Part shown: positions 15,677 through 29,441 of the stretch, piece after piece | Layout: each line of letters opens with the position of its first letter | Position numbering within the stretch: position 1 is the first letter of the stretch | Source: a bacterium | GTDB lineage: Archaea > Thermoplasmatota > E2 > JACPAO01 > JAHFTW01 | Length of the DNA stretch: 64,000 nucleotides | Direction of reading: 5' to 3' | Assembly: GCA_040390065.1 (NCBI GenBank) | Contig: JAZJZE010000011.1 | Coordinates: 32,001-96,000 of the forward strand | The notes under the pieces: model-generated | Databases searched by the model: none | The model's input: only the letters and a program-made list of their open reading frames with translations | Told to the model about the DNA's origin: nothing | Program-made: the position numbers and the translations under genes

Positions 15677-15714
15677 CCGCGCGGCGCGATGGGGAAGGCA
15701 GCCGGTCCCGCATC

Positions 15715-16333: not shown

Positions 16334-16340
16334 TTCAATA
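16334..16340 (+). promoter_or_regulatory. TATA-like box (TTCAATA), shared with the copy at 29141-29147
   Basis: The same heptamer lies 24 and 25 nt upstream of the GTG of Cys-rich peptide copies 1 and 3. Confidence 0.55.
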
Positions 16341-16364
16341 GGTCTGGTGCCTGGTATGGCGTCG

Positions 16365-16673
16365 GTGCCAAAAATGCGCTACGCCATCGTCTACGCCTTG
16401 CTTCTGCTGGCCACAGCAGTCCCGACCGCCACCGCCGATACAGGCGTGTGCGCCTTCCGCTCCGAGACCTGCGGCAACGACGGCTCATCCAGCTGCCCGA
16501 CCTGCGTCATCTTGCCCAGTGGCGAATTGGGCGGCTGCGTGCGCTATCCCGACTGCATGGCGGTCCCAGTTCCCTGCCACCCCGACCCGGGGTCCGGGGC
16601 TACCATTTACTGCACCCAGAACAGCTTTGGAGATGGCGTCTGTTATGGGTCAGTCACGGCAGGCGAAGCGTAG
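16365..16673 (+). CDS. Secreted Cys-rich mini-protein, copy 1 (9 Cys)
   Basis: Signal MRYAIVYALLLLATAVPTATA followed by DTGVCAFRSETCGNDG...CVRYPDC..PVPC...YCTQNSFGDGVCY; paralogs at 23786 and 28786. Confidence 0.88.
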   Translation: MPKMRYAIVYALLLLATAVPTATADTGVCAFRSETCGNDGSSSCPTCVILPSGELGGCVRYPDCMAVPVPCHPDPGSGATIYCTQNSFGDGVCYGSVTAGEA

Positions 16674-16718
16674 GTGTTCCAGGCGTCTTGCATGAGTTTC
16701 TGCGGGTCTTGTGGGGCC

Positions 16719-16752
16719 CTGATTTCATTTTCCCTCCTATTTTGCCACTTCT
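16719..16752. repeat. Dispersed repeat A, copy 3
   Basis: CTGATTTCATTTTCCCTCCTATTTTGCCACTTCT. Confidence 0.55.
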
Positions 16753-16869
16753 CGATCAGGTGAATCCGGCCCGTAGGGCCCATGCGCGTCGTGTGCCCCG
16801 GTCTCGGCTGGCCCCCTGGTTTCGTCAACGATTTTCGGGGCGGCCGGATGAAAACAACTCGCAGCGAGC

Positions 16870-16940
16870 CTCAAATTGTCGCAAAATGGTCCAAACAGCC
16901 CTTTCAAAATGTTAAGGTGTTGGGCAAAATGCGCCGACCC
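16870..16940. repeat. Dispersed repeat B, copy 2
   Basis: Similar to 3640-3700. Confidence 0.65.
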
Positions 16941-17063
16941 TCAAACCCGGCATCACCCAAAAACAACACCCTCGCCGGGAGAGCACCATCCCATGCAAGC
17001 CTGGTCAGGATACTGTGGCGCGGCCGTCAAGGATGGCTTTCTCCGTTCGTGACCTTGTCACGT

Positions 17064-17495
17064 TTAGCGCCAGCTGCCGTGCAAGAACACCCGTCGGTGT
17101 TGGCCTTCCCTGAGGAACTCGATGAACGGGTCATGGCCGGGCTCCGTCCATTGGATTGCCTTGGCAAGTCCGTCGTTGGCCTTGTCTTCGGCCTCGATGC
17201 CGCCGTCGGCGAGCAACCGGAAATTTGCCGAAGGCAAACCGGCGTTGACGAGGCAAAGCCGGATGTGGCCGTAAAACGTGTATTTTCCGCCCCCCTTCGA
17301 GGCCGTGAGGTCGCCAAAATCCACGGGCTGAACCCTCCACGCTGCTTTGGGACACGGCAAATCGCCGTTTGGGTTTTCGCAGAACATCGTGGAGGCCGGA
17401 TTGAATCGCGCATGGATGTTTGCGCCCATCCGCTTCCAGAAATCTTCCGCCGCCGTTGCGGCGTCCACTTTGTCAGATATCGAAATGGAAGCCAT
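17064..17495 (-). CDS. Hypothetical protein (~143 aa)
   Basis: Globular-looking ORF beginning MASISISDKVDAA; divergent from 17629. Confidence 0.6.
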   Translation of the reverse strand: MASISISDKVDAATAAEDFWKRMGANIHARFNPASTMFCENPNGDLPCPKAAWRVQPVDFGDLTASKGGGKYTFYGHIRLCLVNAGLPSANFRLLADGGIEAEDKANDGLAKAIQWTEPGHDPFIEFLREGQHRRVFLHGSWR

Positions 17496-17628
17496 GGGGG
17501 GCGCAACGCGTGCCGCGAGAAAGGACTTTGGGCGGAGCACGTATTTCCTTAGGGAAAGCCCGCAGAGGATTGCGGTGCCTCGGGAGCGGAACAAGCTCCT
17601 TCAAGACTCTCGTGGGAATAGCCGGACC

Positions 17629-17886
17629 ATGGCCAACCCGTGGCTCAACATCGTCGGTTTGTGCGCCGACTTCGTAGGCGTTCTCGTTTTCTTCTGGGGC
17701 ATCTACATTCCGAAGGACGCTCTTCAGCGCATGAAAATGGAGGTCGCCCAGGTGGGCACTATTGGCGGTGGCGGGCCGGACCAGCTCATGAAGGATCGTG
17801 AGCAATCCATCAAGATAGGTATGTGGGGCACCCTTCTTTTAGCGATCGGCTTCCTGTTTCAGCTTGCGGGAAGTTGGCCGAACTAG
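17629..17886 (+). CDS. Small two-TM membrane protein
   Basis: TM1 WLNIVGLCADFVGVLVFFWGIY; TM2 IGMWGTLLLAIGFLFQLAG. Confidence 0.75.
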   Translation: MANPWLNIVGLCADFVGVLVFFWGIYIPKDALQRMKMEVAQVGTIGGGGPDQLMKDREQSIKIGMWGTLLLAIGFLFQLAGSWPN

Positions 17887-18096
17887 GTCTCGAGGTGGCC
17901 AGGGAACGCGGTGTAATCCCGACGAGGATTTCGCCACGGTTTGGGGACTAATCCTGGGGACAAGGGCACCGTCGCGCTGCTAGGCCTCGACGGTCCTTCT
18001 TGATCTACGAGCGGGCCCGCGCGTGCAAGACTTTGTGCGTCTCGGTTCCGCCGTCTTGTAGGGGCGACCTCAAATCGTGTCGCAGAATGCGCAACC

Positions 18097-18834
18097 ATGG
18101 CTCACCCGGGTCGCGTTCGCTGGCGCCGCGTGTTCGCTGACCTCGAGGTTATCGCGGACAAATGGACGTCAAGGCCGTTCCGGCGCCGCACTGCCAACCT
18201 GGCATTCTATTGGCTCCTCGCAATTGCTGTCGGGGGCGGGTTCCTGTGGGTTGAGTTCCATCCGCTGGTGGGCCCCAAGCAGCACCCGACGTGGGTCGAC
18301 GCAAGTCAGGACGCACTTATTGGATTCATGTTCTCCGCCCTGGCGGGGTACTCCTTTCACTTCAGACCGAGGCCACGGACCTGGGCCGAGCCTAGCGACG
18401 CCGAGACTCAACTTATCGCCGCGCAAATCTCCTCGTTACGAGAAGGTCGGGACAGCAATCGCGTCAAGTGGTTGGCGGCAGTTCTGGTGGTTCATACGGC
18501 GACCTTCAGCCTGTTCGGGTGGCTCCTGGACAAGCATGTGGCGACCGACCGCTTTCCAGGCCAACAATTGGTGGCCGTCGGTCTGACTGCGGCGTGGCTA
18601 GTGTGTTGGGGTGCCGCGGCCTCAATCTTGGAGTATGCGTACCGATTGAGAACGGCTGTTGATTTCCTGGCCAAGGGCCACAAGGGCCTGGTGGGCGACT
18701 TCTTCCGGTCCGTTCATCAGCCACTCCCCACTTCAGTCGTCCATGCGGCCGTTCCCCTCGCGCTCTTCCTTCTGGGAGGATACTGGGCACAGGTTTCCCT
18801 GAACGTCTGGGTCCGGATTCTAGGCTGGGCATGA
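18097..18834 (+). CDS. Multi-pass (about 5 TM) membrane protein
   Basis: Five hydrophobic segments separated by charged loops. Confidence 0.72.
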   Translation: MAHPGRVRWRRVFADLEVIADKWTSRPFRRRTANLAFYWLLAIAVGGGFLWVEFHPLVGPKQHPTWVDASQDALIGFMFSALAGYSFHFRPRPRTWAEPSDAETQLIAAQISSLREGRDSNRVKWLAAVLVVHTATFSLFGWLLDKHVATDRFPGQQLVAVGLTAAWLVCWGAAASILEYAYRLRTAVDFLAKGHKGLVGDFFRSVHQPLPTSVVHAAVPLALFLLGGYWAQVSLNVWVRILGWA

Positions 18835-18909
18835 CGCACAACCCTGGGTAGGATTGCTGGAGGGCGAGCGTAAATCACCAGGCCCCTTTTCGTGGCGAGC
18901 CCTACCTGG

Positions 18910-19938
18910 CTACGCGGGACCCGGGATTGCCCAGGCACGTTCATGCCCATCATCTGAGGTATTTCGGGCGAAGAACACCTGTGCATCGAAGTCATAGCCG
19001 TGGCCGTCGAGGTCCATGGGTCGCAGGATACCCCGTGCCCGTCGCACGACGTCGGCAAACACGTCCTTCATCTCGCCGCGGATGCGTCCCCATTCCGTTT
19101 CAGGGTCGACGGATAGCGCCATGAGACAGGAAAGGTCCGACGCGAACTTGCGCAAGAGGAACGCCAAGCGCCCCTCGGCCTCGTGCCGGTCGCGAAGTTC
19201 GAAAAAGCCTGTTTCTAGTGCGGTGATGAGTGCAAGGGCGATAAGGGACTCCGTGAAGACCCCGTGGAAGACGACGTAGGCGGACCGGCGGTCGTCGGCT
19301 TGGCCGGTGATGGCGGATGCGCGCACCTGGTCCCATGGGGCAGGGTCCGGGAACATAGACGAGAAGAGTGTGTGGCCGCATTGGTGGGCTACGTCCTCCG
19401 TGAGGCCGGGAACGGACACGTGCTTGGGGAGGCTCAGGAACGATATGCCGTGCAGGGCCTCCGTTGCGAATGACCGCAGCCGCTCCTGCCGGGAGAATAC
19501 GAATCCCCGCGTCGTCGCCTGCAAGAGGCGCCAGTAGGCCGGGACAAGAGCCTCAAGGGCATTCAGGGCCTTTGCGAGCGTGGCCATAGCTGCCTCGTCG
19601 TGGACGACCTCCAAAAGCACGGATTGGTCCTCCTCGGGGGTGTACGTCTGGAGCAGCAAATCCATTGCGGTGTACACCGTGAAGTCGCGGATCTCGGCCC
19701 TGCCGTCTCTGGTCGGGGCGAGCACGGAACGCTCGATGGCCCGGCCTGGCTCCGGCTGCCGGGCTGCTGCAAGGAGAAGGGGGTGGAGGAACGCGGCGTC
19801 GTCTGAAAAGTCGAGCCGCGCGAAGGCGTCGGGGGCCATCCGGTAGACGAGGATGCGATGCTGCATCGACCGCTGGTGTTGCCCGAGGAGGGCACGTTCT
19901 TGCCAGTGCGGCCAATCGAGTTCAACGCGGCGGGTCAT
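18910..19938 (-). CDS. aKG-HExxH-type peptide-modifying enzyme (HQxxH variant)
   Basis: SFAT..LHG.SFL...EDVAHQCGH followed by the distal DDRRSAYVVFHGVFTE, the layout of the HExxH RiPP-maturase family. SD GGTGGTG lies between it and the upstream peptide gene. Confidence 0.8.
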   Translation of the reverse strand: MTRRVELDWPHWQERALLGQHQRSMQHRILVYRMAPDAFARLDFSDDAAFLHPLLLAAARQPEPGRAIERSVLAPTRDGRAEIRDFTVYTAMDLLLQTYTPEEDQSVLLEVVHDEAAMATLAKALNALEALVPAYWRLLQATTRGFVFSRQERLRSFATEALHGISFLSLPKHVSVPGLTEDVAHQCGHTLFSSMFPDPAPWDQVRASAITGQADDRRSAYVVFHGVFTESLIALALITALETGFFELRDRHEAEGRLAFLLRKFASDLSCLMALSVDPETEWGRIRGEMKDVFADVVRRARGILRPMDLDGHGYDFDAQVFFARNTSDDGHERAWAIPGPA

Positions 19939-19962
19939 GCGAAAGGCACCACCTAGATCGGC

Positions 19963-20223
19963 CTAGCGGGACAGCTCCTTGGGCGTGACTGGGCCGCGCA
20001 GCGCCATCATGGCATCGAGCTTCTGGAACACCGGCACGAGCTCGGGAATCCAGATTCCGGTGGCCTGGTAGAAGCAGTTGTGGCAGCCAGAGTAGCTTCC
20101 GCCAGTGATGCGGGTCATCAGCTTGTTGACATCAGCCGAGCCGGCCTTGCGCAGGAACTCGTCGAGCGACATCGTTTGCGCCTTGTGCGGCGTTTCGGGC
20201 TTCATGGTGGTTGAGTACGTCAT
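19963..20223 (-). CDS. Putative RiPP precursor peptide with double-glycine leader
   Basis: Leader MSLDEFLRKAGSADVNKLMTRITGG, core SYSGCHNCFYQATGIWIPEL...; ends 24 nt upstream of the HExxH gene. Start could be 20223, 20205 or 20172. Confidence 0.78.
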   Translation of the reverse strand: MTYSTTMKPETPHKAQTMSLDEFLRKAGSADVNKLMTRITGGSYSGCHNCFYQATGIWIPELVPVFQKLDAMMALRGPVTPKELSR

Positions 20224-20351
20224 TCTTTCAGTTCTCCATGTGCGCTCATCCAGGCCCCGGGATGCCCAGCCGAGCACGGAAGCACATGAATTGGGGGCGG
20301 GAGTTAGGCCTTGGGCGTGTGGAAAAATTACAAAAGTCCCAACCTAACCAA

Positions 20352-20368
20352 TTTCATTAAATATGAAA
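20352..20368. promoter_or_regulatory. Palindromic operator overlapping an AT-rich promoter
   Basis: TTTCAT-TAAAT-ATGAAA within an unusually AT-rich patch (about 20320-20370), upstream of the precursor gene. Confidence 0.55.
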
Positions 20369-20611
20369 CTCCGGGCGAAGAATCACGCCGCTCGCCCGAA
20401 CTCCTGCTTCGCAATTTCCGGACCAGCAAGGCCACGCTGAATGATGCGCGCCCACGCGACGCAGGCGTCATGGATCCATCGGAGCAGGCCGCCAGCGGTC
20501 CACGCACGATGCCGTAATGGATTGTGTGCTCCAGCCAAATTCGGCCTCGGGGGGAGGTTCGGCCGGGAACCCTCTACCCTATTGTGGCGATTTCCCCTCT
20601 GCCACCTGAGC

Positions 20612-21294
20612 ATGAGGCTGTCATCCGACGAGAGCAAGGTCTTGCAGGCGCTGCTCCAGTCCTATCGTACTGATGCCAAGTGGCCCTCCTTTGGCGGCCT
20701 GCACCGCCGCCTTGCGCTCCAGCTCGACGGCGAGCTCGGCGACGTAGTATCGTCATTGCTTCGAAAGGTTGGCCAACCCGAAGTGCGCTTCGAGTGGGGG
20801 GACTTGGTCCGTTTGCCCCCCGGGCCATCTTGATGGACGAACATGTCGAGCAGACCTACAGCGTTCTGCTCCGAGCACTACCACTTCTGAAGGATTTCTA
20901 CCTACGAGCGAACGAAAAGCCAAGGGTCACCCATCAATACTTCTTGGACATGGGATGGAGTCAGTGCGATGTTTGGCGGCTCCACAACCTCTGCATGTCG
21001 CAGCGATTCTGGTCCGACATGGGCTCCACTCCGGAGACCGGTACCTGGGTGATGGATCTCACGCCGGAGATTACGAGATACGCAAAGGCCGGCTCGGCAA
21101 AGGAACTCTGGGGCTGGCTTGCGAAAGATGAGCGGAAGTGGAGGAAGCGCGCCCGTCGGCCGGACACGGGCCCTTTGGGGCAGCCTACCAAGGCCGGCCG
21201 TGAGTGGATGGCCCATTACATCGTGCCGTTGATACTTGGTGTGCTCGGCGCCGTCATCGCTGGCGCCATCTTGTGGCGACTCGGATTGCACTAG
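20612..21294 (+). pseudogene. Frameshifted gene for a C-terminally membrane-anchored protein
   Basis: MRLSSDESKVL...WPSF...DLVRLPP in one frame continues as RAILMDEHVEQ... plus a C-terminal TM in the -1 frame. The junction is at the C6 tract 20816-20821. Confidence 0.6.
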
Positions 21295-21442
21295 GGCCGC
21301 CATGACGGCCCGCCACAGCGCGAGACGAAGCCGAGCCCGCAATCACCCGTGGTGGCTTGTGACACGGCCCCGGGTTTGCGGCAGGTCCCTAACAATCTCC
21401 GAGGCGGGACATCACACAGAAAAGCCTCTTGCGCCACACCCC

Positions 21443-21757
21443 ATGACAACCCCGATGCCCACTCCAAATGCGCCACGCTTCAACGCAGCTGCGGGGGCCC
21501 TTCACACGGCCATCGCGCAACTTGCCGGATTCATGGCGCAGCGCCCAATCTCGGAAGCGTCATTCCAGACGCCATCAAATCCCGAGGGGCAGACAAGTCC
21601 CCGCCTGCGGGCCGCTGCGGAGCTTACCCAAATCCTGTTGGAAATTCCCCAAATCAACGGGCCAGCCATGGGCGAAAGAGAGGGAATTGAAACGCTGGGA
21701 AACCTGTTCGTGGACGTGGGGGAAATTCTTCAACGGGTGGGCCCAAACCTGCCCTAG
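21443..21757 (+). CDS. Small helical hypothetical protein
   Basis: 104-aa ORF with amphipathic helices; double stop TAGTAG. Confidence 0.55.
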   Translation: MTTPMPTPNAPRFNAAAGALHTAIAQLAGFMAQRPISEASFQTPSNPEGQTSPRLRAAAELTQILLEIPQINGPAMGEREGIETLGNLFVDVGEILQRVGPNLP

Positions 21758-21823
21758 TAGGTAATCCCGTTTAGACGGAGCCAGGCGTGGATTGTGGACC
21801 TTTTGCGAACCTTTCGTGGTTCG

Positions 21824-23308
21824 CTAGGCCTTTTCCGAAAGAGCCGCGACCGTCTCCTTGGCAATTTCAAGCATTTTCCTGGCGTCCGTCTGGCTGCTGG
21901 TTTCTCCGTGCAGGATGGAGTTACGTTTCCGGTTGTAGGCGATAATCTTGGCGGCCGTCGCCGGAGGAAGCCACCCTGCGATTTCCAGGCCGCCTGCCAT
22001 TTGGACCGTTTGCCAGGCTGCGTCTGACTTGGTGCCTTGCGCGCCCGTCGCCTTGCGGAGAAGGCCTTCCCAGGATTCGTTGAGGCGGCGCTCCACGACC
22101 GTCCACGCCAGGAAGAACGCCTGGCGCCATTCCTCGTCGTCCAAGTGGCTCTCCGCTTCCAGGAGCGCGACATGCCAAGCTGCCGCTGGGTCACTGAGGC
22201 TTGCCGACGCTTTGCGAAAGGCGGTCGCCACGGTGGTCTTGGATATCCAGGCGCTTCCAAGCCAAACCCGTTCGGCGACCTTGACTGGCGGGCGATCCTG
22301 CGGGACGAAACCCCATGACGAGTACTCAATGGGTCCCGTGGAGTTCCTGCGCACAATAAACGGCGCTAGGTCTTGCGGCCTAAGATGCGCAGTCTTGTGG
22401 TCACCTCGGCGCAGGTGAACGCAGACGAGGTTGAGAAAGCGCTGCGCCTTCTTCTTGTCGGCACACTCGATACCGATGCTTCCCTCTTATGTCGCAAAGG
22501 CCGCGCCCAGTGGCGTCTTCACCTCGACGATTCTAGTGCCAGGACTCCCGCTCGTGAAAGGGCCCCACAACAGTTCTGCCATCGTCGAGGCAGGATGCTT
22601 TCCGATGTTGCAAGGCGGGTAAAGTCGGCTGGCATATCCGCTGGGAGGCGGCTCGACGTAAGGAACGGGCGGGGTCGGGATCGTTTGCCGGACTTCGCGT
22701 AGGTAGTGGCGCCGCCGTTCCCGGTTGCCTCGTGCCTCGCGGAAAAATTGGTCAACAAAATCAGCAGGATTTCTTTGCAGCAGGTACCCGTGGAATACGA
22801 CAGAGCCGTGGTTCGCATCCCACCCCTGTAGGTACAAGGCCGAGTCTTCGCGAGACGGATTCATGAGGTGCACGCGAAGGGTATCGAAAATGCTGCCAAT
22901 CTGCCGGGCGAGGTGGTCGCTTAGGCGCCCCCTGCTCGTGGGATCCCGGACCGAGAAGACCGGACCACGCCGCTTGAGCTTGACCGGCCATTGGAACCAG
23001 GGTTCCGCATACAATTCCTCGAGAACCCGTTGGAGGTCCTTGGGCTCGAATGGCCCCCAACTGTAGGTCACGCCATCTGAAAGGCTTGGCCAATGCATGG
23101 CAACGACAAAGTGAAACTCCGTGTCTGGCCAGCTTCTCATCCACAGGTGGGCAAACTGGGTCGGGCGGCCAAGCCGCTGTGATACGTGAACCAAGCGTCG
23201 GACGGGGGCGTCCTCGCTGCGGGCCCGCTTCCGGTACTCCTCGATGAGGCGAGCAAACCATGCAAGCGCTCGCGCATCTTGGCGAGGCACTGGTTTCTCA
23301 TCCACCAT
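21824..23308 (-). pseudogene. HEPN-domain (RxxxxH) protein gene interrupted by a single in-frame TAA
   Basis: ORFs 22487-23356 and 21824-22354 are in the same frame. The 44 codons between them are open (EGSIGIECADKKKAQRFLNLV...). The only stop is TAA 22487-22489. C-terminus has AFFLAWTVVE...RKRNSILHG. Confidence 0.78.
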
Positions 23309-23780
23309 GTCGCGGACGCCATGCCCATTGAAAACAGGGCGCTTGGAGCACGGCACTGGTGTTAGATTGTCGAAGCCGCGCTAGAAGCGTGGGCGGCCGA
23401 CGAAAAATCGGCGAGGAAGTGCGGGTGGGCGCGTCGTCGCGATGGGCAGGGTCCCTTTTTGGATCGGTGCCCTCGTGAAATCCCCTCATGGCTTGCGCCG
23501 CCCACCACTAGGCGGGCGAGGCCGTTCATTCCTTGGGCTGTGCGGCTAGATGCCAGCACAAACCCTCGCTTCCCCTGAGCCGGTCGCGGCGATGGGTTCG
23601 CTTCGTTTCGGCAATGGAATGCCGGGGCTACTTTGGATAGATTGGGCCCATTCATCACGCGCTTTCCCTCCTGTCGGTTCGGCCTGCCGTCTACTGGGTC
23701 ACGTTGCCCAGGCGTTGGACGTGCCTTACCAATCCATCGTCCTGACGAGAAACCGAAAGAGGGGCAGAGGGCTCGAACCG

Positions 23781-24043
23781 AGGCGTCACAGGTTCCGCGT
23801 GTCAACTGTGGTGTGCCCCACGTTGGCCGACGCGTAGCAAAGGCCGTCTCCAAAGCTGTTCTGCGTGCAGTAGACGGTAGCCCCGAAGCCCGTGTACGGC
23901 TGGCAGGGAACAGGGGCGTCCAAGCAGTCCGGGTAGCGCACACAGCCACTCAGTTCGCTTCCGGGCAAGACCCAGCAGGCAGGGTACCCGGACGAGCCGT
24001 CGTTGCCGCACGCGTCGGAGCGGAACGCGCACACCCCCGTGTC
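23781..24043. repeat. Direct repeat of 28781-29043 (~94% identity by manual count)
   Basis: About 15 mismatches in about 263 nt; offset 5000 bp. Confidence 0.92.
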
Positions 24044-24109
24044 GGCGGAGACGGTCGGGACAACGGCAAGGGCCGCGAGCAGGAGTATGCCGGCAAGGAT
24101 GGGTCGCAT
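23786..24109 (-). CDS. Secreted Cys-rich mini-protein, copy 2 (8 Cys)
   Basis: Signal MRPILAGILLLAALAVVPTVSA; mature part nearly identical to copy 3. Confidence 0.88.
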   Translation of the reverse strand: MRPILAGILLLAALAVVPTVSADTGVCAFRSDACGNDGSSGYPACWVLPGSELSGCVRYPDCLDAPVPCQPYTGFGATVYCTQNSFGDGLCYASANVGHTTVDTRNL

Positions 24110-24250
24110 CAGGGACACCAAGCCAGGCAAGGCTGCCCGTTCGACATCCTTTGTGGAGAAAAAACCGGCATGCCGGAGCCGTAACGCGCCAGCCGCGGCC
24201 CGACGAGGCCGACTTGGAAGGTGTGCCTGAAGTCAGCCCCGCGGGAGTCG

Positions 24251-25558
24251 TCAGCGAACGCCCGCAAGGCCCCAATAGACATCCTGATCGTCGGTTGCCC
24301 AGACGACGTGGTCGCTTCCGTCTGGCCCGATCGCGACTTGCAGGAAGTCCCCGAGCGGGGGCGTGCCGCCGCATGAGGAGTAGCCCGTCGTGCAGATGAC
24401 CTTCGTGGAGACGGGCTCGTCTGTCATGGCCAGCCTCGTGATGGCCGGCGTGATGGAGGCGGCATCCAGGATGTCCACCAGGTAAGGTCGCCAAGGGCCC
24501 TTCACCTTGTTGGGGTCGCCGGGATGCCCGGGCGCGGCGTAGAACGCAACGGCTGCGTGGCCCGCCGCGGCGGCGGCGATCCAGGGGCTGGCGGCCGCGC
24601 CGCCCGGGTCCGAGACGCGCACCGGCGCCATCCAGGTTGCACCATGGTCGGAGCTCGCGGAATAGAACACCTGGGCGTTGCCGTCCTTGAGCTCGGCCCA
24701 GGTGGCGTATAGGTTGTTGGCGGCGTCGGCAGCGACGGATACGAACGTGTAGTCCGTGGGGTTCGTCGTATCGAGGACCTTGGCCGCAACGAACGTCTGG
24801 CCCGCGTCCCGGCTTACATAGGCGTTGACCCCGTCGCCGTTGTTGCCGACGACGATTGTGCCGTCGGGCGCGATGGCGATGCCACTGGCCCCAGCAGGCG
24901 GCGCTTCGACCACGGGCGTCTGTTGCGCGAAGGTGAGGCCGCCGTCCGTCGACACGGCGACCCAGAGCTGCGTGATGGCGCCGACGAAGTTGAGTTGGCT
25001 GATCCATGTCACCGCGACGAGATCACCCTCGCCGGCGGCAACCCATTCCCTGTCTCCCCAGGGGACTGCGAGCGCGGCTGCATTGCGGACCAGCCAGGTT
25101 CGTCCTGCGTCGTTCGACCTCGACACGGTCACCGATGCCAGGGTCAGGTCGACGAAGTACGCGGTCCCTTGCGGGCTGACGGCCAAGTCGCCTTCCATGC
25201 CATACGGTAGGTTGCTGACGCCGGTGGCCGCGTCCACGGGTTCGACCTCGGCGAAGCCGGTCCCGTTGTGCGCCACCCATAGCCGGCTCGATTGGACACC
25301 GTCGACGCCGCGCTCCTGATGCAGGCCTTCGGCCGCCGTGACGTAGATTGTCCCGTCGGGCCCGACCTTGACGCTCGGTTCAAAGCCGACGCCGGCCTGG
25401 TTGACTTTGAGGTTGGCCAGCACCGAGAGGACGCGCCCCGGTACGATGGGGTCGATAGCTGGCGCGTCCGGCACGGTGGGCGCCGCAGGGCCGCGGCCCG
25501 GCTGGACGCAGCCAGCCAGAACGATGAGCGCTAGCAGGAGAACGGCCGAATGGCGCAT
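24251..25558 (-). CDS. BNR/Asp-box (sialidase-like beta-propeller) lipoprotein
   Basis: Lipobox LAGC; Asp-boxes SNDAGRTW, STDGGLTF, SRDAGQTF, SSDHGATW; DREW motif. Confidence 0.9.
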   Translation of the reverse strand: MRHSAVLLLALIVLAGCVQPGRGPAAPTVPDAPAIDPIVPGRVLSVLANLKVNQAGVGFEPSVKVGPDGTIYVTAAEGLHQERGVDGVQSSRLWVAHNGTGFAEVEPVDAATGVSNLPYGMEGDLAVSPQGTAYFVDLTLASVTVSRSNDAGRTWLVRNAAALAVPWGDREWVAAGEGDLVAVTWISQLNFVGAITQLWVAVSTDGGLTFAQQTPVVEAPPAGASGIAIAPDGTIVVGNNGDGVNAYVSRDAGQTFVAAKVLDTTNPTDYTFVSVAADAANNLYATWAELKDGNAQVFYSASSDHGATWMAPVRVSDPGGAAASPWIAAAAAGHAAVAFYAAPGHPGDPNKVKGPWRPYLVDILDAASITPAITRLAMTDEPVSTKVICTTGYSSCGGTPPLGDFLQVAIGPDGSDHVVWATDDQDVYWGLAGVR

Positions 25559-25667
25559 GCGAGTCAAGGCGATCATGTCCATCACCGGCTCGGCCCTTAA
25601 GGGGAGCTTGGAGAGATTGTTGGCATGAGGGACGAGAACTCGGAAAAGCAAAAGAACCCGTCCCCGA

Positions 25668-27326
25668 GTGTTCGCCGTCGTGGCCGACCGACCGTCCCGG
25701 CATTCTGCGGTCTGGCCGTGCCTCATCCTCCTGCTTTTGACGGGCTGCGCGGCGGCAGTGCCGCTTGCAACCACGGCAGGTCGCGACATGGACCCGCCCG
25801 GAAGCGAGAGGGGCGAGGCGCCGGCCAATGCCACGCAGCGGACGCCCCACCGCTCAGCGTCGGCTGTGGAGGTGACCTTCGATGACACGAACTACTTGGC
25901 CACGCAACACGTCACCCTTTCCAACGATTACGGCGGCGCCCCGGCGGCCCGCGTGCACCTGGCCACGCCCCGCGGTGGCGTGATGGCGCGGCCTGGCCAA
26001 CGTAATGCGTACGAAGTCGAGGCGGTCCTGCACGCGCGAGGCCCCACCGAACAATCGGCGCGCAACCAAATCGCCGCCATGCACGTCGTGGCGCGCGACC
26101 GCCTGGGCCAAGGAAAGCTGTTCCTTGACGTCGACGTGGAATTGGCGGCCGCCAAGTCCGATTTCCCCTGGGATGCCCTGGACACCTTGGGCGGCACGCC
26201 CAGGTGGGCCGATATCGTTGCCACGTTGCCCGCCGAAGCGGACCATGACCTCGATGCGCAGACGACCGACGACGCCCTGGCTGTGACTGGGCTGCGTGGG
26301 CAGTACCTCGATTTGCAGACGACGACGGGTCGGCTCGCGGTTGACGGCCAATGGGCGGCAGCCCGTCTGCGAACCACCTATGGCGACCTCGACTTGAGTG
26401 GGGAGTACTCCGAGGCGTCAGCCACAACTGAACGGGGCAGCATTTTCGTGCGCGGCACCTACGGCGACTTCCAGGCGGTGAGCCAAAGCGGCGAGATCCG
26501 CGGCACGGTGCACCCACAAGACGGTGCCCGCCACGCCCTTTCCACCGAGGATGGACCCATCCACTGGGACCTCGAGCAGACTCCCCTGTTTGGACTCAAC
26601 CTGACCGCCGCCTCTTCGCGCGGCCAGGCACAACTGAGCGTGGCCGGCGTGGCGACGCAGGGTCAGGGCGAGTTGCACCAAGCCGTCCATGCCGACGCGT
26701 GGCAGGTGGTGACGGTCCAGGCCTCAAGTGACCGCGGCGACGTCGTCCTCAGCGCACCCGCCGTCGTGGCTGTCGGGAACAGGCCGTTCGACTTGCAGGT
26801 CGGGACGGCGTTGCTCGGCCTCGGGGCCATCGCCGTCGCCGCGAAGCTGTTCGGCGGACGCCTCCTCGCACTGTTCACCCGTCTCGACACGAACCAGGTC
26901 CTCAACCACCGGCGGCGGCAAGCCATCATGGACCACGTCACGGAAAATCCTGGGCGATCCTTTAGCGACCTGCGCCGCGACATCGGGCTGCCCAACGGCG
27001 TCCTGGTCCATCACCTTCGCGTCCTCGCGGCCCATGGGCTGCTTGTCTCGAAGGGCCGCGGCAACCGCCGGTGCTATTATGCACCGCGGGCCGCCGTCCA
27101 TCCGTACCTGACGACGGTCCAGGCCAGGATCCTGGCCGCCCTGGATGCTGAACCAGGCATCACCCAACAGGAGCTTCGTGACCGCGTCGGCATCCCGCGT
27201 GGCACGCTCGGATACCATCTCGGCGTCCTCCGAGACGCGGGCCTGCTGCATGAAGCCAAGAAAGGCCGCTTTACGCGATACGCGCCCACTGCGCCGAATG
27301 CCGTGGACAACGCAAAGCCCTCGTAA
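25668..27326 (+). CDS. Membrane-spanning one-component regulator: extracellular DUF4097-like beta domain, TM, tandem wHTH
   Basis: LLLTGC lipobox-like N-terminus; TTxGx(I/L) beta-strand repeats; TM followed by LFTRL; two wHTH (NPGRSFSDLRRDIG.., EPGITQQELRDRVG..). Confidence 0.88.
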   Translation: MFAVVADRPSRHSAVWPCLILLLLTGCAAAVPLATTAGRDMDPPGSERGEAPANATQRTPHRSASAVEVTFDDTNYLATQHVTLSNDYGGAPAARVHLATPRGGVMARPGQRNAYEVEAVLHARGPTEQSARNQIAAMHVVARDRLGQGKLFLDVDVELAAAKSDFPWDALDTLGGTPRWADIVATLPAEADHDLDAQTTDDALAVTGLRGQYLDLQTTTGRLAVDGQWAAARLRTTYGDLDLSGEYSEASATTERGSIFVRGTYGDFQAVSQSGEIRGTVHPQDGARHALSTEDGPIHWDLEQTPLFGLNLTAASSRGQAQLSVAGVATQGQGELHQAVHADAWQVVTVQASSDRGDVVLSAPAVVAVGNRPFDLQVGTALLGLGAIAVAAKLFGGRLLALFTRLDTNQVLNHRRRQAIMDHVTENPGRSFSDLRRDIGLPNGVLVHHLRVLAAHGLLVSKGRGNRRCYYAPRAAVHPYLTTVQARILAALDAEPGITQQELRDRVGIPRGTLGYHLGVLRDAGLLHEAKKGRFTRYAPTAPNAVDNAKPS

Positions 27327-27436
27327 CCCAGGCGACCGCCGCGAGGCCGGCCGACAGGCCGAACTCCGCTCCACGCTCCCTATGTTGCACCTCAGCGTCC
27401 GTCACAAGCAGGGCTACCTGCCCCAGAAGATTCCCC

Positions 27437-28726
27437 ATGAACATCCGCGTTCTTGCTGCCCTTGCAATCCTTCTCGCCGGCTGCGCCACCACGCAACCGA
27501 CGACGGCACCGACTGACGCGACGCCGGCCACGACCGCGGCGGACCAGGTGGCCAAGGACGTGACGGTCCCGTCCGCTCCATCGACCGGCCCTCGGCCGCC
27601 CACCAGGTTGTATGACGCCTGCGACAAGTTATGCGAACCAAGCGTCACAGTCGACGGCAAGGCTCGACTCGTCGTCACCGAGACCATGCAGCGCAAGGGC
27701 GGGTACCTGGCCGTAATTGACGGAAACGGGACCGTTGCGCGCGTGGCCTACCCTCCCACACCGTCCGGCACGACGGCTGACGCCTTCCAACAGGACAACC
27801 TCGTCCAGACGGATTCCCAAGGCCGTCTCGTGTTCTCCGCAATGGTGTCGGACTGGTTCCCCAATGGCCAGCACGCCTACTTCAACACGGTCGGGCTGCA
27901 AGTCGCCGTATCGCCGGACAGCGGCCGCACCTGGTCCTCCAACGTCCTCGTCACGATCCCGGCCCTCGCGGCGCCGCTGCATGACCGCCAATGGCTGGCC
28001 TTTGGACCGGATAACGTCATGTACCTCGTGTTCCAGCAGATTCCCACCGGCATCTGGGCTGCGCGGTCCGACGATGGCGGCAGCACCTTCCAGACGGCAA
28101 TGCCGGTGGCAACCCATGCCGATCGGCTGTACGTCCGGGCAAGCGGCTTGCCCGCGGTCGACCACGACGGTCGACTCGTTGTTCCGTATTTCGCGGTCCT
28201 CGACCCGACAACGACGGACACGGAAGCCTCAGCTACGGTCAGGATCGCCGTCTCGACGGACAAGGGCCTTACGTTCACGCAGACCATCGTCGCCGTGGAA
28301 CCAAGCGACCACGGAGCCTGGCCCACCGTCGTGGCCGACGATGGCAATGGCCTTCATCTATCCTGGGCGTCGGCGACCGAGGGAGTCTTGGTGGCGCACT
28401 CGGCGGATCATGGCGCCACGTGGACCGCCGCAACTGCCTGGGTGAAGGAAGGTGTCATCCCGGAGCAGACGTGGATGGCGACAACGCCACAGAAGACGCT
28501 CCTGGTGGCGTGGTATGCCAAGGACGGGAACGGCCACGTCCTGCGCCTGGCGCGCGGCGGAGCCAACTACGCGGACCCCCAAGAGGAAGCCATCACGATG
28601 TCCCCGAAGCTCGCGGGCGGACAGCCCTCCACCGACTTCCCAAACTTCACTGTCATGGCGGACGGCACCGTCGCATCGGTCTGGGGGGAGACCGATGCGG
28701 GCGTGACCCTGGGACTTACTCGATAG
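27437..28726 (+). CDS. BNR/Asp-box (sialidase-like) lipoprotein
   Basis: Lipobox LAGC; SPDSGRTW, SDDGGSTF, STDKGLTF, SADHGATW; DRQW motif. Confidence 0.9.
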   Translation: MNIRVLAALAILLAGCATTQPTTAPTDATPATTAADQVAKDVTVPSAPSTGPRPPTRLYDACDKLCEPSVTVDGKARLVVTETMQRKGGYLAVIDGNGTVARVAYPPTPSGTTADAFQQDNLVQTDSQGRLVFSAMVSDWFPNGQHAYFNTVGLQVAVSPDSGRTWSSNVLVTIPALAAPLHDRQWLAFGPDNVMYLVFQQIPTGIWAARSDDGGSTFQTAMPVATHADRLYVRASGLPAVDHDGRLVVPYFAVLDPTTTDTEASATVRIAVSTDKGLTFTQTIVAVEPSDHGAWPTVVADDGNGLHLSWASATEGVLVAHSADHGATWTAATAWVKEGVIPEQTWMATTPQKTLLVAWYAKDGNGHVLRLARGGANYADPQEEAITMSPKLAGGQPSTDFPNFTVMADGTVASVWGETDAGVTLGLTR

Positions 28727-28780
28727 GCAACCAAGACCGTTCCAGAAAAAAGGGGGAATGGGGAAGAGGGCTCGAGCTAG

Positions 28781-29043
28781 AGGCGTCACAGGTTCCGCGT
28801 GTCAACCGCGGTGTGCCCCACGTTGGCGGACGCGTAGCAAAGGCCGTCTCCATAGCTGTTCTGCGTACAGTAGACGGTGGCCCCGAAGCCCGTGTACGGC
28901 TGGCATGGAACAGGGGCGTCCAGGCAGTCGGGGTAGCGGACACAGCCGTTCAGCTCGTTTCCGGGCAAGATCCAGCAGGCAGGGTACCCGGACGAGCCGT
29001 CGTTGCCGCACGCGTCGGAGCGGAACGCGCACACCCCCGTGTC
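28781..29043. repeat. Direct repeat of 23781-24043
   Basis: See partner copy. Confidence 0.92.
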
Positions 29044-29115
29044 TGCGGTAGCGGTCGGGACTGCTGCGGCCAGCAGAAGCAAGGCGTAGACGATGGCGTA
29101 GCGCATGTTTGGCAC
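28786..29115 (-). CDS. Secreted Cys-rich mini-protein, copy 3 (8 Cys)
   Basis: Signal peptide like copy 1, mature part like copy 2. Confidence 0.88.
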   Translation of the reverse strand: MPNMRYAIVYALLLLAAAVPTATADTGVCAFRSDACGNDGSSGYPACWILPGNELNGCVRYPDCLDAPVPCQPYTGFGATVYCTQNSYGDGLCYASANVGHTAVDTRNL

Positions 29116-29441
29116 CCGATACGCGACAATGGACCCGGTCTATTGAAGCGTCTGGTGAACAAGCCGAGACTGGCCGCGCTCCTCACGACGCATTGCCTGC
29201 GGCGCAGGGAGAGACCACGCAGGGTATCAGGTCCGCCGGCGACGCGCACGTCCATCGACTTTTCTCCTTCAACAGCCGGCGTGGTTTGACTGCATGGTGG
29301 CCCTTGCGCGGCTGACCAACGGCGAGTGGGGCGGCATCGAGGTATTACCGGCGCCGTGGCGCGGCCGGGGACGACCACAGCGTCATTACCAGATAGGAGG
29401 AGGCCTCGGAGGGACCGGTTACAGGTGCCCCGTCTCTCGGC

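Follow-up and report, generated by a model that had tools for sequence, protein, structure and literature searches.

A 64,000-nt stretch of genomic DNA from an uncultured Thermoplasmatota archaeon (assembly GCA_040390065.1, contig JAZJZE010000011.1, positions 32,001 to 96,000 of the forward strand; hereafter the window) carries three paralogous genes, which we call c1, c2, and c3, for small, cysteine-rich secreted mini-proteins. A fourth paralogue, c4, lies elsewhere in the same genome. We are highly confident in the descriptive picture, in which these are intact and constrained genes of an orphan family, their products are predicted to be Sec-exported, soluble, acidic proteins of ~8−9 kDa, and tracts of DNA have been exchanged between the copies. 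As to function, our leading suggestion, offered tentatively, is that the mini-proteins are stand-alone extracellular effectors or binders, acting as antimicrobials or as inhibitors of foreign enzymes. The three genes of the window, in window positions, are as follows.

c1, 16356/16365/16374−16673, plus strand: possible starts ATG 16356, GTG 16365, and ATG 16374; signal peptide and 78-residue mature part with nine Cys.
c2, 23786−24109 (ATG start) or 23786−24130 (TTG start), minus strand: signal-peptide DNA of its own; 85-residue mature part with eight Cys.
c3, 28786−29106 (ATG start) or 28786−29115 (GTG start), minus strand: c1-type signal peptide and c2-type 85-residue mature part with eight Cys.

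The three open reading frames (ORFs) can be aligned end to end and encode precursors of 99−107 residues. Each begins with M-R followed by a hydrophobic stretch and an A-x-A motif; the signal peptides close with ATA or VSA, and DTGVCAFRS comes directly after. An initial annotation of this DNA had described three genes for a signal peptide plus an ~80-residue mature domain with eight conserved Cys, together with a ninth Cys in copy 1, and both statements are confirmed. The Cys residues are spaced C-x6-C-x10-C-x10-C-x5-C-x6-C-x11-C-x9-C, and the ninth Cys of c1 takes the place of a Tyr in c2 and c3 (SSSCPTC vs SSGYPAC). This spacing (6-10-10/6-11-9) had suggested an internal doubling of a four-Cys half, which we rejected after an hhalign comparison of the halves returned a probability of 0.05. 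The mature proteins are 68−94% identical among c1−c3 and rich in Gly, Pro, and Asp, and the acidic character is clear in the seven sequences evaluated (isoelectric point about 4.0−4.5, with 7−15 acidic against 1−6 basic residues). Profile E-values for c1−c3 of 1e-62 to 1e-70 (c1, E = 3.4e-62) rule out a chance resemblance. A Sec-type pattern of N-terminal Arg/Lys, hydrophobic core, and A-x-A was recognized by eye in 12 of 12 family sequences, including those introduced below, and none of the 12 has a twin-arginine motif, a lipobox, or a C-terminal anchor. Since c1−c3 lack all three of these features, we read the mini-proteins, on inspection by eye, as Sec-exported and soluble.

The initial annotation had also called copy 3 a mosaic, with the TTCAATA box and signal peptide of copy 1 and the mature region of copy 2 at five amino acid differences, and alignment and site counts bear this out. 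The shared elements on which the comparison turns are the following.

TTCAATAG box before c1, 16334−16341, plus strand: TATA-like; 23 nt before GTG 16365 (−31 to −24 of the GTG).
TTCAATAG box before c3, 29140−29147, minus strand: TATA-like; 24 nt before GTG 29115 (−32 to −25 of the GTG).
39-nt word identical in c1 and c3, 16374−16412, plus strand, with the c3 copy at 29068−29106, minus strand: first signal-peptide codons; a separate contig in sequencing run X1; marks the gene-conversion tract.
72-nt word identical in c2 and c3, 23972−24043, with the c3 copy at 28972−29043: node that closes a 5000-nt loop in the X1 k=31 graph.

At the DNA level, c2 and c3 are 93% identical over 282 nt, c1 and c3 81% over 293 nt, and c1 and c2 79% over 238 nt. 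These averages hide an uneven distribution. Between c1 and c3, 3 of 63 signal-peptide nucleotides are substituted, compared with 55 of 222 in the mature part (Fisher p = 2.9e-4). Between c2 and c3, the mature parts show only 15 substitutions over 258 nt (five amino acids), and the signal-peptide DNA is unrelated. The likeness of c2 and c3 extends about 30 nt beyond the stop codon. In a three-way DNA alignment, c1 and c3 have in common the TTCAATAG box, the GTGCCAAA word, and the signal-peptide codons. Thus, c3 is a true mosaic in which a c1-type promoter box and signal peptide are joined to a c2-type mature part, and the pattern among c1, c2, and c3 calls for no fewer than two exchanges, of different age. 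At the sites that distinguish c2 from c3, an allele of the mini gene in a second sequencing run, X2, agrees with c3 in 5 cases and with c2 in 14. This further patchwork indicates that gene conversion between the copies is recurrent and, with the tract counts, supports the gene conversion proposed at the outset.

The exchanged upstream segment may include a promoter. The TTCAATA words lie at 16334−16340 (plus strand) and 29141−29147 (minus strand), and so coincide with the outer limits of the region singled out in the initial annotation. Upstream of 665 well-delimited genes, the A+T fraction shows a modest peak between −29 and −25 relative to the start codon, reaching 0.45 from a level of about 0.33. 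This peak is a signature of TATA boxes of leaderless transcripts, which suggests that the boxes are weak and noncanonical and that many transcripts are leaderless. A+T-rich words are strongly depleted in the 2.68-Mb genome (TTTATA occurs 43 times, TTTAAA 36 times, and TTCAATA 16 times); with only 16 occurrences, TTCAATA was rejected as a general promoter word, and it is its position alone that agrees with the −29 to −25 peak. Because the TTCAATAG box sits at the spacing typical of the genome, c1 and c3 plausibly have promoters of their own. No TTCAATAG box precedes c2, which starts 121 nt behind a gene on the same strand (BNR-A, described below), past a hairpin and a T-run. The genome encodes a TATA-binding protein, which marks the organism as an archaeon; this protein is 95% identical to that of a metagenome-assembled genome (MAG) labeled "Thermoplasmatota archaeon" and about 70% identical to those of Thermoplasmata MAGs.

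Similar copies in an assembly raise the question of whether they are assembly duplicates or chimeras, or whether the ORFs are genes at all. We compared public sequencing runs over 14−32 kb of the window. In run X1, which probably represents the source sample, contigs built at k=31 end at the 39-nt and 72-nt words, the DNA separating c2 from c3 forms a loop in the graph, and the two copies are direct repeats exactly 5000 nt apart (window 23780−29061), all of which could be taken as signs of an artifact. However, the X1 contigs are interrupted only at these two words, and each copy is found with its own flanks (contigs covering 14000−16403, 16383−24001, 24014−29001, and 29077 onward). Copy-specific variant sites and both flanks are carried on separate contigs of 15.7, 7.6, 5.0, and 21.9 kb, so that the collapse of the copies as an assembly artifact, which the initial annotation had allowed for, is not borne out. 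The shared words have raised depth (46 for the 39-nt word and 33 for the 72-nt word, vs 12−14 in the flanks), the copies differ by 7−21%, and either path through the graph loop gives intact genes with the same mosaic. A related allele is present in run X2, from another sample of the same study, in which window 23.6−32 kb is found at 94−99% identity and nothing of window 14−23.6 kb is found. Taken with the constraint at the codon level, these data make an artifact scarcely credible.

That constraint is evident in each comparison that was made. Nei−Gojobori dN/dS is 0.14 for c2/c3 (10 synonymous and 5 nonsynonymous differences), 0.23 for c1/c2, and 0.20 for c1/c3, and G+C at third codon positions is 0.83 in c2 and 0.84 in c3, in a surrounding region of 62−65% G+C. 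The X2 allele differs from c2 in 17 codons (19 listed in-gene sites), 12 synonymously and 5 nonsynonymously, with no Cys affected; the X2 contig has 25 differences in all, up to 3 of which are unlisted and hence unclassed. The genes are therefore genuine and under purifying selection, and the description of the family as diversifying does not hold.

Outside the window, the family is very small. No family model matched c1−c3 in Pfam, NCBIfam (E ≤ 0.01), PHROGs, or PADLOC, and PDB sequences gave no match at E ≤ 10, in line with the family having gone unrecognized in the initial annotation. Profile searches of 5.77 billion protein clusters returned only the window proteins in the first round, 4 foreign proteins in the second, and 8 in the third (P0003−P0010); these are unnamed proteins of 102−111 residues encoded on contigs of 1.1−7.3 kb. 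A filter-free HMMER search of 1.84 billion representatives gave 3 matches at E ≤ 0.001, including the window's own protein, and no longer, fused form of the family was found there. With an 11-row profile, none of 400 other Thermoplasmatota genomes, 8 of the same genus included, had a match at E ≤ 0.001, and a 3-row profile found nothing real in all 12 genomes of the genus; its weak genome matches (best E = 1.5e-3 and 4e-3) were rejected, one matching by signal peptide only and the other being noncoding. The 11-row profile did find a further copy in the window's own genome.

c4, G000:C9:379581−379895 (= L122:1480−1794), minus strand: 104 residues with 10 Cys; E = 8.8e-12.

The search for further copies that the initial annotation had proposed was thus successful within the genome and not in the other Thermoplasmatota genomes covered. 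Together with P0004−P0010, c4 forms a second clade of eight members, all of which have two extra Cys, making ten. Across the 12 family members, the eight core Cys are invariant in 12 of 12, and the C-x-N-D-G and Y-x-D-C motifs are nearly so. A pattern search for the contigs of the foreign relatives gave 32 matches among genome contigs and 391 among metagenome contigs, none of which was confirmed; of a further 233 matches among metagenome contigs, one apparent relative proved to be an antisense frame inside an ATPase gene and was discarded. Viral contigs gave nothing beyond one false match, and plasmids and phages gave no match. Among the genomes searched, the family is confined to the source species, to which eight short metagenomic contigs are added. 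A literature search of limited extent found no paper on such a family. We place it, as an undescribed family, in the broad category of the secreted disulfide-rich mini-proteins, whose traits are seen here in the signal-peptide pattern of all 12 sequences, as judged by eye, and in a conserved even set of Cys, with the odd ninth residue of c1.

The c4 gene lies between a conserved housekeeping DUF1405 gene and genes for tRNA-Leu and tRNA-Asn. DUF1405 is the family of Bacillus subtilis LhaT, according to PMC12345273. In the closest relative, whose DUF1405 protein is 77% identical, no mini gene is present at this spot, and the two tRNA genes are swapped in order and orientation. A related genus has, immediately downstream of the DUF1405 gene, an unrelated secreted ORF whose final 115 residues contain 10 Cys (L130, G019:C11, 2214−2561, plus strand); this could be a further small, Cys-rich secreted family occupying the same variable position.

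The reading of the mini-proteins as stand-alone effectors or binders follows from what surrounds the four genes. The initial annotation had proposed a search for conserved neighbors, and no neighbor common to c1−c4 was found in Pfam, NCBIfam, PHROGs, and PADLOC scans of the neighboring genes. These scans likewise gave no maturase, ABC exporter, or immunity gene common to the copies, such as would be expected of a bacteriocin or a ribosomally synthesized and post-translationally modified peptide with dedicated machinery. All four copies lie in strain-variable DNA. The lack of a common neighbor and of a dedicated transporter, maturase, or recognizable immunity gene, together with the strain-variable setting, leads us to the stand-alone effector or binder as a possible and currently favored account. 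In such a scheme, cleavage at A-x-A would be followed by pairing of the eight Cys into four disulfides, which would give a compact, protease-resistant extracellular protein. The mini-protein would then be released into the medium and would act on a target outside the producer, as an antimicrobial or an inhibitor of a foreign enzyme, with the three window copies placing the same protein under different promoters. The presence in the window of genes for an RHS protein, an extracellular contractile injection system (eCIS) core, a DUF6519 protein, and a PG-binding protein was also counted in favor of an effector.

Several observations weigh against this account. The RHS and eCIS genes are 12−30 kb away from the mini genes, and guilt by association over such distances is weak. 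The acidic character of the proteins is unlike that of most membrane-active antimicrobial peptides. The copies have no immunity-like partner in common; the small membrane ORFs that lie close to c1 and to c4 are unrelated. Genes for DsbA, DsbB, VKOR, and Thioredoxin_4 were not found in the 89%-complete genome, so that disulfide formation would have to be spontaneous or to proceed via unknown machinery. Purifying selection and the near-identity of c2 and c3 are unlike the arms-race pattern common in toxins. AlphaFold2 gave no usable fold, with a mean pLDDT (its per-residue confidence measure) of 39.8 for mature c3 with a 7-row alignment and 42.3 with P0003 as the first row. Finally, c1−c3 all lie beside membrane-anchored regulators, which fits a role of the mini-proteins as ligands or regulon components at least as well. 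The genes in question are listed here.

Reg-C, 14153−16140, plus strand: secreted ectodomain, membrane helix, and double winged helix-turn-helix (wHTH) with Pfam HTH_5 and HTH_HVO_0163_N; directly upstream of c1.
BNR-A, 24251−25579, minus strand: BNR/Asp-box beta-propeller lipoprotein with lipobox LAGC; Pfam BNR and BNR_2 at or below cutoffs; upstream of c2.
Reg-A, 25668−27326, plus strand: DUF4097 toastrack ectodomain, membrane helix, and double wHTH; divergent from BNR-A.
BNR-B, 27437−28726, plus strand: a further BNR propeller lipoprotein, with 29% identity to BNR-A (E = 5e-19); convergent with c3.
Reg-B, 29442−31496, plus strand: ectodomain of unknown family, membrane helix, and double wHTH; divergent from c3 across a 326-nt spacer.

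This arrangement invites the alternative that the mini-protein works outside the cell with the double-wHTH regulators, the BNR lipoproteins, or both, as a signal, a co-sensor, or a modulator, or that its genes are targets of the regulators. Reg-C immediately precedes c1, Reg-B and c3 are transcribed divergently, and c2 belongs to a unit with BNR-A, Reg-A, and BNR-B. The genome has 36 HTH_HVO_0163 matches, corresponding to about 30 regulator genes, and finding one immediately next to two of three copies exceeds the chance expectation (estimated at about 2% per gene). Furthermore, the cassette c2−BNR-A−Reg-A−BNR-B is kept in the second sample at the identity given above. On the other hand, the ectodomains of the three regulators are unrelated (a DUF4097 toastrack in Reg-A, of unknown family in Reg-B and Reg-C), while the mature mini-proteins resemble one another closely, and so ligand and receptor do not co-vary. 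The c4 gene has no such neighbor, and no notable operator-like word of at least 9 nt is common to the intergenic regions. BNR paralogues are common: BNR-A belongs to a large paralogue family with 9 matches in the source genome, and 25 of the 31 genomes from the taxonomic family have matches as well; a mini gene was found beside none of the 13 BNR loci of relatives that were examined. BNR homologues of the same genus are only 32−37% identical, and none of 10 scanned loci (7 with a BNR homologue and 3 with a weak hit) had a mini gene, which also speaks for stand-alone, accessory genes. A complex prediction of BNR-A (residues 25−442, 11 rows) with mature c2 (7 rows) scored 0.01, which is no evidence either way. 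On balance, we regard a role as ligand or regulon component as unlikely, though worth keeping in view.

One contig of run X2 may bear on whether the cassette is rearranged. It runs from the end of BNR-B across a diverged c3-type 3′ flank to a gene whose signal peptide is of the c2 type, as are 64 nt of the DNA upstream of it. The junction is as expected of a circle, of a tandem copy of the cassette [mini gene−BNR-A−Reg-A−BNR-B], or of another strain arrangement, and it hints at duplication, excision, or reshuffling of the cassette by exchange between copies. A bolder proposal would combine these elements: the mini genes would be both product and recombination handles of a modular archaeal surface-sensing system, the eight-Cys protein would be a self-made ligand of membrane-anchored one-component transcription factors, and copy exchange would duplicate, excise, or reshuffle the 5.0-kb sensor-propeller cassette. 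We consider this combination very improbable; if true, it would amount to archaeal protein-based cell−cell signaling or kin recognition.

The mini-proteins might instead serve a structural or ion-binding purpose, as a calcium- or metal-binding module or a small envelope-associated subunit in which the conserved C-x-N-D-G-D-S-G loop and the Cys would help the protein to fold or to bind metal. Their acidic, Gly-, Pro-, and Asp-rich composition, the conserved N-D-G-(D/S)-S-G loop, and the strong purifying selection agree with this, and several copies under different promoters would suit a need for dosage. In contrast, a distribution as narrow as the one described, with no occurrence in 400 other genomes of the phylum, is unusual for an envelope building block, and the proteins have neither an anchor nor a match to a known calcium- or metal-binding family. 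This leaves such a role rather doubtful.

Several other features of the window were recorded. Reg-C is split over two frames, 14153−15676 and 15715−16140, and its HTH homology begins at 15700, ahead of any start codon in frame (window 15607−15715); a frameshift probably joins the two ORFs and could reflect recoding, a pseudogene, or an error of sequencing. Upstream of Reg-C, window 12771−14147 (plus strand) encodes two paralogous small secreted proteins of 178 and 203 residues with an fn3-like motif (SWNAP...DGRTLxGYxVYR) and no Pfam match. The 7 kb between c1 and c2 (window 16700−23700), with ORFs of 176−342 residues and a lower G+C fraction of 0.60−0.63, gave no Pfam, NCBIfam, PHROGs, or PADLOC match, and this stretch is among the DNA missing from run X2. 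At window 41522−49996 (plus strand), a 2824-residue RHS-repeat protein with fn3 and DUF6531-type domains looks like a polymorphic-toxin-type protein, here in an archaeon, and at window 53186−63360 (minus strand), PG_binding_1, eCIS core plus OmpA, and DUF6519 plus beta-helix genes resemble components of an extracellular contractile-injection-like cluster or a related one. ARAGORN placed a tRNA-Pro (agg) at window 7983−8069 (plus strand), inside an ORF for a 1163-residue PKD/cadherin protein; it was unconfirmed by Rfam at the gathering threshold and is probably false. Rfam found only a tRNA-Val in the window.

Returning to the favored reading of a stand-alone effector or binder, we compared the mini-proteins with known secreted proteins of similar build. 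Defensins and fungal antifungal proteins (AFP, PF11402) are likewise small and secreted, with three or four disulfides and stand-alone genes. They are cationic and 45−55 residues long, whereas the mini-proteins are acidic and 78−85 residues long. The net positive charge is absent, and no defensin, AFP, or halocin model matched, so the label "defensin-like" given to the family at first is not supported. Feature-based look-alikes in the ESM Atlas, an AFP cluster at 0.79 (the first such look-alike) and an unrelated viral family at 0.80 for P0008, are both at chance level by the calibration of the tool and were set aside.

Among archaeal analogues, halocin C8 (TIGR04449, halocin_C8_dom) comes closest in size and Cys content. 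It is secreted and Cys-rich, its mature part has ~76−85 residues, and a regulator gene adjoins, namely halR, according to bioRxiv 10.64898/2026.07.27.741052. That paper also describes halocin C8 as cut from the C-terminus of a 283-residue Tat-exported precursor that also yields the immunity protein HalI, with ABC transporter genes adjoining. The mini-protein precursor, in contrast, has 99−107 residues and a Sec-type signal with the mature part straight after it, and comes with no immunity domain and no transporter. Membership of the halocin C8 family was rejected, as there is no TIGR04449 match (NCBIfam, E ≤ 0.01), no Pfam match, and no long Tat precursor with HalI.

The actinomycete enzyme inhibitors tendamistat, SSI, and SMPI are disulfide-bonded proteins of similar size with Sec export, stand-alone genes, and extracellular action, and they have four Cys. 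Here, the analogy is purely functional: the mini-proteins have 8−10 Cys, and searches of Pfam and PDB sequences gave no match.

Apart from the halocins of haloarchaea and the sulfolobicins of Sulfolobus, the secreted effector proteins known from archaea are very few, and to the best of our knowledge, none comes from uncultured freshwater or soil Thermoplasmatota. The very narrow distribution of the family limits the generality of any result obtained with it. The mini-protein family is a clean candidate effector, in that it is tiny, under selection, present in multiple copies, and matched by no described family. Candidate partners adjoin it in the form of two propeller lipoproteins and three membrane-anchored regulators. 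Should the mini-proteins prove to be antimicrobials or inhibitors, they would represent a new scaffold; should they prove to be ligands of the neighboring sensors, they would provide a first example of protein-based extracellular signaling in archaea.

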